8,229 nt of DNA from a virus (lineage: Duplodnaviria; Heunggongvirae; Uroviricota; Caudoviricetes), in the IMG/VR virus record IMGVR_UViG_3300029742_000283; one strand, 5' to 3'. Positions 1-455 of the stretch are shown piece after piece. The notes beneath the pieces were generated by a model, which saw only the letters and a program-made list of their open reading frames with translations, did not search any database and was not told the origin of the DNA. Each line of letters begins with the position of its first letter. Positions within the stretch are counted from its first letter, which is position 1. A program made the position numbers and the translations under genes.

Positions 1-81
1 AAATACTCCCGCTATCAACTGACGCTAGTATAACGGAAGCAAATCATCTGCAATGCATTAAGCAGCAGGCAAATTGAGGAT

Positions 82-108
82 AAAAAAAACCCCCACATCA
101 TGTGGGGG
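82..108 (-). terminator. Intrinsic terminator-like hairpin, minus-strand orientation
   Basis: Seen in sequence: 8-bp GC-rich inverted repeat cccccaca (90-97) / tgtggggg (101-108) with a 3-nt loop, directly preceded on the plus strand by A8 (82-89), i.e. followed by U8 on a minus-strand transcript. Lies in the non-coding region beyond ogr. Confidence 0.5.
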
Positions 109-198
109 AAGACAGGGATGGTGTCACAAAAAAGCACCTAACCTGATGATATAAATGGATTTATATCAACCACTGTCCACATAGCGTCCACATCGACC

Positions 199-232
199 AT
201 AAATAAAGCCCCTCAACTGAGGGGCTATTTTT
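199..232. terminator. Bidirectional intrinsic terminator immediately downstream of ogr
   Basis: Seen in sequence: stem gcccctc (208-214) / gaggggc (219-225) with loop aact; plus strand then has T5 (228-232); minus strand has TTTATTTAT after the stem (207-199). The ogr stop codon (TGA, 237-239 on minus) is 12 nt upstream of the stem. Confidence 0.55.
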
Positions 233-236
233 GTGA

Positions 237-455
237 TCACATCCACATAATTTGCTGCCCTGACGGCAACGGGTGCGGCCTTACGGCGTGGACTTCTCCC
301 GGCTTCACGATGTATCGCTGTACCGACTCATAAGTGATGAACGTGGCACTGCAATTCACGTTCTGGCACTGATGATAACGCTCTTTTGTCGTGTCAGTGA
401 TATAGCGGCTTGTACGCGCATGTGCGGCATGCTGGCATAAAGGACAATGAAACAT
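237..455 (-). CDS. ogr: Ogr, zinc-finger late-gene transcriptional activator (72 aa)
   Basis: Translation MFHCPLCQHAAHARTSRYITDTTKERYHQCQNVNCSATFITYESVQRYIVKPGEVHAVRPHPLPSGQQIMWM matches my recollection of phage P2 Ogr, with a CxxC...CxxxxC zinc-binding motif. True start is the internal ATG at 455-453, preceded on the minus strand by AAGAGGTG (RBS, about 7 nt spacing); the 93-aa ORF-track version starting at 518 is an upstream in-frame extension that overlaps the promoter. Position after gene D matches P2 order. Confidence 0.9.
   Translation of the reverse strand: MFHCPLCQHAAHARTSRYITDTTKERYHQCQNVNCSATFITYESVQRYIVKPGEVHAVRPHPLPSGQQIMWM

Follow-up and report, generated by a model that had tools for sequence, protein, structure and literature searches.

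A stretch of DNA that runs out in non-coding sequence beyond the last gene of a P2-like phage raises the question of what that sequence is: the free attachment site of an unintegrated phage, the junction of a prophage with its host, or what an excised element left behind. The window, i.e., the whole stretch of 8,229 nucleotides analyzed here, carries on its minus strand a P2-like tail-gene block (sheath, tube, E/E', tape measure, U, D) and then ogr (237-455, minus strand), which encodes a late-gene activator of 72 amino acids and is the last phage gene ahead of the attachment site. The first-pass annotation had read the remaining interval (bases 1-236) as attR plus host flank or, if the element was not integrated, as attP, and had failed to match the P2 core because the element uses the WΦ core instead.

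Host, core, and phage sequence at the prophage end

We mapped the junction in an ungapped stack of the window with the cpxP-fieF region of Escherichia coli K-12, the attP of phage WΦ, and the opposite ends of the E. coli W and GF47 prophages. Bases 1-78 are the host flank (B'): they correspond to the 5' untranslated/promoter region of fieF (minus strand), are identical to E. coli K-12 MG1655 at 78/78 positions, and show no similarity to WΦ attP in the stack. Window base 1 directly adjoins the minus-strand ATG of fieF, which lies to its left, and the gene is annotated as directly adjoining in both strain GF47 and K-12. The next 47 bp (79-125) form the common core (O) of attR, which reads GACACCATCCCTGTCTTCCCCCACATGATGTGGGGGTTTTTTTTATC on the minus strand. 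This core is identical to WΦ attP (AY135739) and to the attL of GF47 and W at 47/47 positions, is also present in the attL of AR_0137, and matches the K-12 attB at 46/47, the sole difference falling at window position 98. From base 126 to base 236 the sequence is the ogr-side phage arm (minus strand; the "P arm" of the P2 RefSeq record), which is identical to WΦ attP, unrelated to K-12, and colinear with P2 bases 24255-24357. The WΦ paper reportedly gives a 47-nt identity, in agreement with the 47-bp core of our stacked comparison.

Searches of phage and bacterial genomes drew the boundaries at the same bases. In free phage genomes (WΦ, the Yersinia phages HQ103 and L-413C, and others), similarity to the window begins at base 79 and extends to the right, with 99.6% identity to WΦ and 100% to HQ103 over 79-600. 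Uninfected E. coli K-12 matches bases 1-125, and part of the query was matched by every complete E. coli genome. At the far prophage end, the 47 bp recur as a direct repeat between cpxP and the phage integrase gene in GF47, W, and AR_0137; in these three junction-sharing genomes, a phage integrase or tyrosine recombinase is annotated beside cpxP, outside the window. Overall, attB, attP, attL, and attR have one core in common, which in the window separates host DNA from phage DNA; it is the core of WΦ attP and is situated between cpxP and fieF. We are thus highly confident that bases 1-236 represent attR, where the right end of a P2-family prophage meets its host at the WΦ-type site of E. coli, between cpxP/cpxQ and fieF. 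The two checks that the first-pass annotation had proposed, i.e., finding where homology switches from phage to host and looking for a matching direct repeat at the other prophage end, both bear out its attR reading: the switch lies inside the interval, which is neither all phage nor all host, and the repeat is present beside int and cpxP in related prophages. Both the kind of junction and this instance of it are known, since it is a WΦ-type attR whose integration module was characterized years ago, and the practical value of the mapping is a base-exact prophage boundary (host 1-78, core 79-125, phage from 126).

The near-identity of bases 79-600 to the free WΦ and HQ103 genomes would also be expected if the interval were a host-free attP from phage DNA that is circular or packaged rather than integrated. 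However, bases 1-78 bear no similarity to WΦ attP on its int side and are identical to the K-12 sequence upstream of fieF, and fieF directly adjoins an identical junction in other genomes. The host bases rule out an attP free of host DNA, and we give this half of the earlier proposal practically no chance. An excised phage or a cryptic remnant such as K-12 ogrK was likewise rejected, as the host flank and a complete tail-gene block are both present. A 40-amino-acid open reading frame on the minus strand (15-137) was dismissed as spurious, as it spans the host/core junction and a terminator. Separately, one record labeled "Escherichia phage P2" (KC618326.1 / NC_041848.1) matches window bases 1-600 fully, including the 78 bases of fieF flank, and is therefore an in-silico-excised prophage whose right end runs into host DNA.

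Across 5426 complete E. coli genomes, a junction-spanning attR query was covered at ≥80% in 790 (about 15%), and an empty-site query was covered in 4591, so that the element is a common E. coli prophage and its recovery an ordinary scan result. The window is identical to the GF47 locus (L001) over bases 1-600 and displays 162 differences from it in an ungapped 6600-base comparison, which indicates either a related but different prophage or strain, or an indel. In the GF47 prophage at the cpxP-fieF site, gene A is followed by an inserted IS1A and by cargo genes for hypothetical proteins and a DNA cytosine methyltransferase (L005 5638-6335). We also noticed that many complete E. coli assemblies, e.g., NZ_CP172169.1 (L005/L006), start exactly at the prophage gpA, the replication endonuclease gene, which places attR at about 25-30 kb in the record; apparently, rotation software took the phage replication gene for the origin.

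The core as the 3' end of the small RNA CpxQ

We next consider what the phage core is in the host. In K-12, the 58-nt cpxQ gene is annotated at 4106330-4106387, directly after cpxP (1831-1888 of the extracted locus, L003), and the core falls at about 4106344-4106390 on the current record. The minus strand of 79-125 thus corresponds to CpxQ nt 15-58 and three further bases. RNase E releases CpxQ from the 3' UTR of the cpxP mRNA, and the sRNA functions together with Hfq in the envelope stress response (PMC5736990). The core therefore includes the cpxP/CpxQ intrinsic terminator (82-108, minus strand), with a stem at 90-98/100-108 (CCCCCACAT/ATGTGGGGG) and a U-tract encoded by 82-89; the copy differs from the K-12 CpxQ terminator by one loop base. 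As the run of eight A residues at 82-89 precedes the stem on the plus strand, this hairpin is terminator-like only on the minus strand, where the RNA of 79-139 that contains it folds at -19.7 kcal/mol.

The first-pass annotation had listed this hairpin as one of two terminators insulating phage and host transcription from each other. Of that pair, the hairpin within 199-232 does hold up as a predicted phage terminator (see below), whereas 82-108 is the host's own cpxP/CpxQ terminator, inside the core. As the core holds the last 44 nt of CpxQ with the terminator, integration leaves both host transcription units undisrupted, because the full CpxQ is rebuilt at attL from 14 host nucleotides plus the core, and a copy of the terminator is kept before fieF. 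The attR copy is 5'-truncated: it retains only CpxQ nt 15-58, its first 14 nt being replaced by phage sequence, and it lies ~30 kb from cpxP; its intact terminator stands ahead of fieF, like that of the full copy in the uninfected chromosome.

Our literature search found no paper linking CpxQ to the WΦ core or to any phage attachment site, and the overlap between CpxQ and the core appears to be new. The P2 core is likewise the 3' end of an sRNA, CyaR, and Rfam CyaR matches were detected beside P2-type junctions (L091, L098, L177). WΦ thus targets the terminator half of an envelope-stress sRNA, as P2 targets the CyaR terminator. It is plausible that the inverted repeat of the CpxQ stem serves as a pair of core-type sites for the integrase.

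Several side observations concern this target. P2-type integrases with other cores also appear, as judged by eye, to target intrinsic terminators. In Kosakonia oryzendophytica, a P2-type prophage end was found at the homologous CpxQ-fieF site (L095, about 1416-1640), so that this integration target is used beyond Escherichia; the CpxQ stem there is the genus's own variant with compensatory changes, CCCCTCCAT/ATGGAGGGG. An Rfam scan of window bases 1-700 returned sub-threshold matches only, and K-12 cpxQ was similarly without a gathering-level match. The best match was to RF02628 (Hrs1, "Hfq-regulated sRNA 1"; plus strand, 82-148), at 31.8 bits against a gathering score of 56.4. Read in reverse complement, the Hrs1 consensus looks like the cpxP 3' end and CpxQ, and RF02628 may be a CpxQ homologue modeled on the opposite strand.

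The one core position that separates the window from K-12, window 98 in the CpxQ terminator loop, is polymorphic in empty sites, with C in K-12 and A in many strains. At attR, the fetched loci carry A in 23 cases and C in 4, and at least 23 complete genomes match a C-allele query at 100%. Both attP copies compared (L002, which is WΦ, and L214) carry A, while AR_0137 displays A (in the CpxQ sense) at attL and C at attR. If the phage brought the A in this strain, strand exchange would have occurred on the cpxP side of the loop, i.e., within window 99-125; were the alleles assigned the other way round, exchange would fall on the opposite side of the loop. Window 98 is thus a natural marker for the position of strand exchange, and part of a lysogen's CpxQ can be phage-derived.

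Predicted integrase sites, terminator, and palindrome of the ogr-side arm

The phage arm holds two copies of GTCCACAT, as the first-pass annotation had noticed. The ogr-proximal copy lies at 186-193, as stated there; the core-proximal one is at 175-182 rather than 174-181, which makes the start-to-start distance 11 bp, or one helical turn, and not 12. Both read ATGTGGAC on the minus strand, in the contexts aTGTGGACag and aTGTGGACgc (175-193), and fit the published arm consensus of P2-type integrases, tgTGGaCa (PMC3448106). They are homologous to the annotated Int site of the P2 P arm, and the int-side arm has an equivalent pair, GTGTGGACACTATGTGGACAC, in attL and attP, so that the repeat is found on both arms. 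As an 8-bp direct repeat at a spacing of 8-22 bp arises in 6% of 2000 dinucleotide-preserving shuffles of 1-236, the chance test alone makes the repeat only weakly significant, and support comes from homology. This evidence supports the GTCCACAT pair as predicted integrase arm-type sites, one of the two functions suggested earlier. A third near-copy, ATCCACAT (ATGTGGAT on the minus strand), lies at 240-247, within the final codons of ogr (..MWM*); P2 has it as well, outside the annotated Int footprint, and it is probably coincidental coding sequence.

The other function suggested for the pair was binding of the excision factor Cox. Recombination directionality factors are described as typically binding to direct repeats spaced by about one helical turn (PMC7498355), and the 11-bp distance between the copies would suit such a factor. 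Against this, the Cox-protected region of P2 is annotated on the int side of the core, across the core from the repeats, whose own P2 homologue is annotated as an Int site, and the repeats fit the integrase consensus, not the P2 cox-box TTAAA(G/C)NC(A/C) (PMC3936717). The target of WΦ Cox, moreover, is a direct repeat of 12 nt in the Pe-Pc region (PMC5009727). That region contains two repeat families, GTCACCAATA (two copies) and CCWGTCCYTTCTAGG; the two copies of GTCACCAATA, at 34-bp spacing, are the C operator (PMC1904268). One more copy of CCWGTCCYTTCTAGG, the sole non-operator repeat, is found in WΦ attP at L002 2941-2955, to the int side of the core; the window has none. Cox sites at 175-193 are therefore very improbable, and we retain the pair as putative integrase sites.

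Between these sites and ogr lies a bidirectional intrinsic terminator (207-226; stem AGCCCCTC/GAGGGGCT) that would end the transcripts of ogr and the late tail operon. It is terminator-like on both strands and is the homologue of the P2 "rho-independent terminator for ogr transcript and F operon". RNA segments containing the hairpin fold at -17.8 and -20.8 kcal/mol, with z-scores of -3.8 and -5.9. A G+C-rich stem-loop followed by a U-tract was thus seen for minus-strand transcription at 108-90 and in either direction at 207-226. In a chance comparison, terminator-like sites numbered three against 0.6 expected.

Between the arm sites and the core, in the counterpart of the P2 IHF footprint, we found a perfect palindrome, TGATATAAAT gg ATTTATATCA (147-168). 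The first-pass annotation had rightly called it perfect, at 9 bp (148-167); its arms are in fact 10 bp long (147-156 and 159-168), with a 2-nt spacer. Of 2000 dinucleotide-preserving shuffles of 1-236, 0.15% produced a perfect inverted repeat of 10 bp or longer (loop ≤10), and likewise 0.15% produced two or more of 9 bp or longer. The palindrome overlaps an IHF-consensus-like element, TATCATCAGGTTA (139-151, minus strand; WATCARNNNNTTR with one mismatch), which occupies the same position as the consensus in the annotated P2 IHF site. The window holds 11 IHF consensus matches against 8 expected, so that the consensus alone is at chance level.

We examined how the palindrome varies among P2-type attachment sites. 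Searches for loci by Ogr were of limited reach (80 viral loci, all with an identical Ogr, and 20 loci from a genome scan), and a DNA pattern of the arm sites, TCGATGTGGNCNNNNTGTGGAC, proved more productive. P2-type arms (loci L007-L347) were gathered with this pattern from viral and metagenome contigs and supplemented with the Ogr-linked loci. The resulting 97 distinct arm sequences stand on many different cores, and conserve the pair of arm sites, a fixed 7-bp spacer, the palindrome, and TCA...TTR. In all 97, a 20-bp dyad (window 148-167) lies seven bases past the second arm site. Its commonest form is GAAATAAA-TCCT-TTTATTTC, followed by TCA-N5-TTR; conservation of the TCA...TTR columns extends over 65 arm variants, and that of TCA-N5-TTR over 65 to 97 arms.

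Variation within the dyad largely preserves its symmetry. Double changes were observed from AT to TA at pair 2/19, from AT to TA (the WΦ type, as in the window) and to GC at pair 3/18, with a GT intermediate, from TA to CG and to AT at pair 5/16, and from AT to TA at pair 6/15, and variants with a single mismatch also occur. Among 65 sequences, four pairs changed on both sides, and none of 500 column shuffles reached the observed covariation, which was far lower in slid registers. Among all 97, none of 2000 shuffles reached the observed Watson-Crick fraction, number of compensated cells, or number of pair types. As the sequences are related, these shuffle tests overstate the significance.

This covariation was a new by-product of the comparison, without a stated explanation. 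One reading, which we hold to be possible but doubtful, is that the palindrome at 147-168 is functional in its own right, as the site of a symmetric dimeric protein or as a DNA or RNA hairpin, and is more than the A/T-rich half of an IHF site. The compensatory changes at four of the eight arm pairs and the outcome of both sets of shuffles speak for it, as does the asymmetry of the IHF consensus, which does not predict mirror-image compensation. Set against these are the position of the element, exactly where P2 is annotated as IHF-protected, the overlap of its right half with the conserved TCA of the IHF consensus, the asymmetric and conserved center (TCC), the weak fold of the palindrome as RNA (-5.9 to -7.1 kcal/mol), and the relatedness of the sequences; no candidate symmetric ligand was identified. 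We tentatively suggest that the dyad at 148-167 could be a separately selected element of P2-type att arms, in which at least five apparently independent compensatory double substitutions restored symmetry, and which would imply a symmetric ligand or a hairpin function. If this is true, the dyad might, for example, serve a control that is different in circular and integrated phage DNA, as integration separates the arm from int.

A further reading is that the copy of the core in attR (and attP) gives rise to a CpxQ-like sRNA, 5'-truncated or chimeric and borne by the phage, which would interfere with the host's envelope-stress regulon. The phage does carry 44 of the 58 CpxQ nucleotides, with the terminator intact, and on the minus strand the palindrome reads TGATATAAAT, which resembles an extended -10 element, ~30 nt upstream of the core. 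In lambda infection, moreover, CpxQ features prominently among the chimeras with phage RNAs that are bound by Hfq (bioRxiv 10.1101/2024.10.31.621285). However, a promoter scan of window bases 1-600 returned no sigma-70-like site, the copy is preceded by the ogr terminator and lacks CpxQ nt 1-14, and duplication of the target's 3' end is the ordinary result of integration into an RNA gene or terminator. The -10-like TGATATAAAT is, in addition, peculiar to the WΦ version and missing from the commoner P2-type palindrome (GAAATAAATCC), so that a promoter does not explain the conservation. We consider expression of this phage-borne 3' two-thirds of CpxQ very improbable, and less likely than the palindrome being a separately selected element.

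Proposed recombination and comparison with known attachment sites

Taken together, the homology of the arm to P2 attP suggests how the site would work; the integrase and IHF assignments follow the P2 footprints as recorded in the RefSeq annotation. The N-terminal domain of a heterobivalent tyrosine integrase would bind the arm-type sites at 175-182 and 186-193, and IHF would bend the DNA at the A/T-rich palindrome and consensus region (139-168). This bend may let the same integrase molecules reach core-type sites within 79-125, where their catalytic and core-binding domains are expected to act. For excision, Cox would act on the other arm, which in the prophage is the attL arm. Integration would thereby regenerate the full CpxQ at attL and leave a terminator copy before fieF at attR. 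The hairpin at 207-226 presumably stops ogr and late transcription ahead of the attachment site and, because it is terminator-like on the plus strand as well, would in the circular form also stop read-through from int.

The closest known system is WΦ (Peduovirus Wphi) at E. coli cpxP-fieF, with which the window shares the 47-bp core and the whole ogr-side arm; the same core has been reported for Yersinia phage L-413C. The WΦ site was identified earlier, and the WΦ (and L-413C) integration site was given as K-12 position 4104392 in older numbering (PMC3448106). The ~2-kb offset from current K-12 coordinates would reflect only a change of genome version. The GF47 and AR_0137 prophages, which have the same junction, are not WΦ: their integrase, C, and Cox accessions differ from those of WΦ and E. 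coli W, and their int-side arm has diverged from that of WΦ and E. coli W.

P2 attP displays the same order and spacing as the window, i.e., ogr, terminator, two Int arm sites 11 bp apart, a palindrome with an IHF site (annotated in P2, putative in the window), and core, and the arms are clearly homologous. The P2 RefSeq record (NC_001895) lists, in order, ogr, the rho-independent terminator, an Int site ("P arm"), IHF, the attP core, Cox, and a second Int site, the last within the 3' end of int. In the alignment, window AGCCCCTCAGTTGAGGGGCT falls on the P2 terminator, TCGATGTGGACGCTATGTGGACAG on the P2 Int site TCGATGTGGTCAATGTGTGGACGT, and GATATAAATCCATTTATATCATCAGGTTAG on the P2 IHF site region GAAATAAATCCTTTTATTTCAATTTATTG. 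The core differs: that of P2 is 27 bp long (AAAAAATAAGCCCGTGTAAGGGAGATT) and lies at the cyaR 3' end, whereas the element here uses 47 bp at the cpxQ 3' end.

More distantly, phage lambda attP is recombined by a heterobivalent integrase and combines arm-type sites with IHF sites such as H'. Its logic is that proposed here, with arm sites bound by the integrase N-terminal domain, an IHF bend to the core, and an excision factor on one arm (PMC3448106). The two differ in the sequences, number, and arrangement of sites, the window having one putative IHF site on the arm distal to int, and in the excision factor, which is Xis in lambda and here Cox, a bifunctional repressor/excisionase. Integration into the 3' end of RNA genes for tRNAs, tmRNA, or sRNAs, in which the displaced part is duplicated, is also known from phage 186, in tRNA-Ile, and from Fels-2/SopEΦ, in ssrA (PMC3448106). 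These phages likewise carry the 3' part of their target; here, it comes with a terminator, and the host gene is rebuilt at attL. Whereas their targets are tRNA-like genes, the target here is CpxQ, a 3'-UTR-derived sRNA processed from the cpxP mRNA (PMC5736990).
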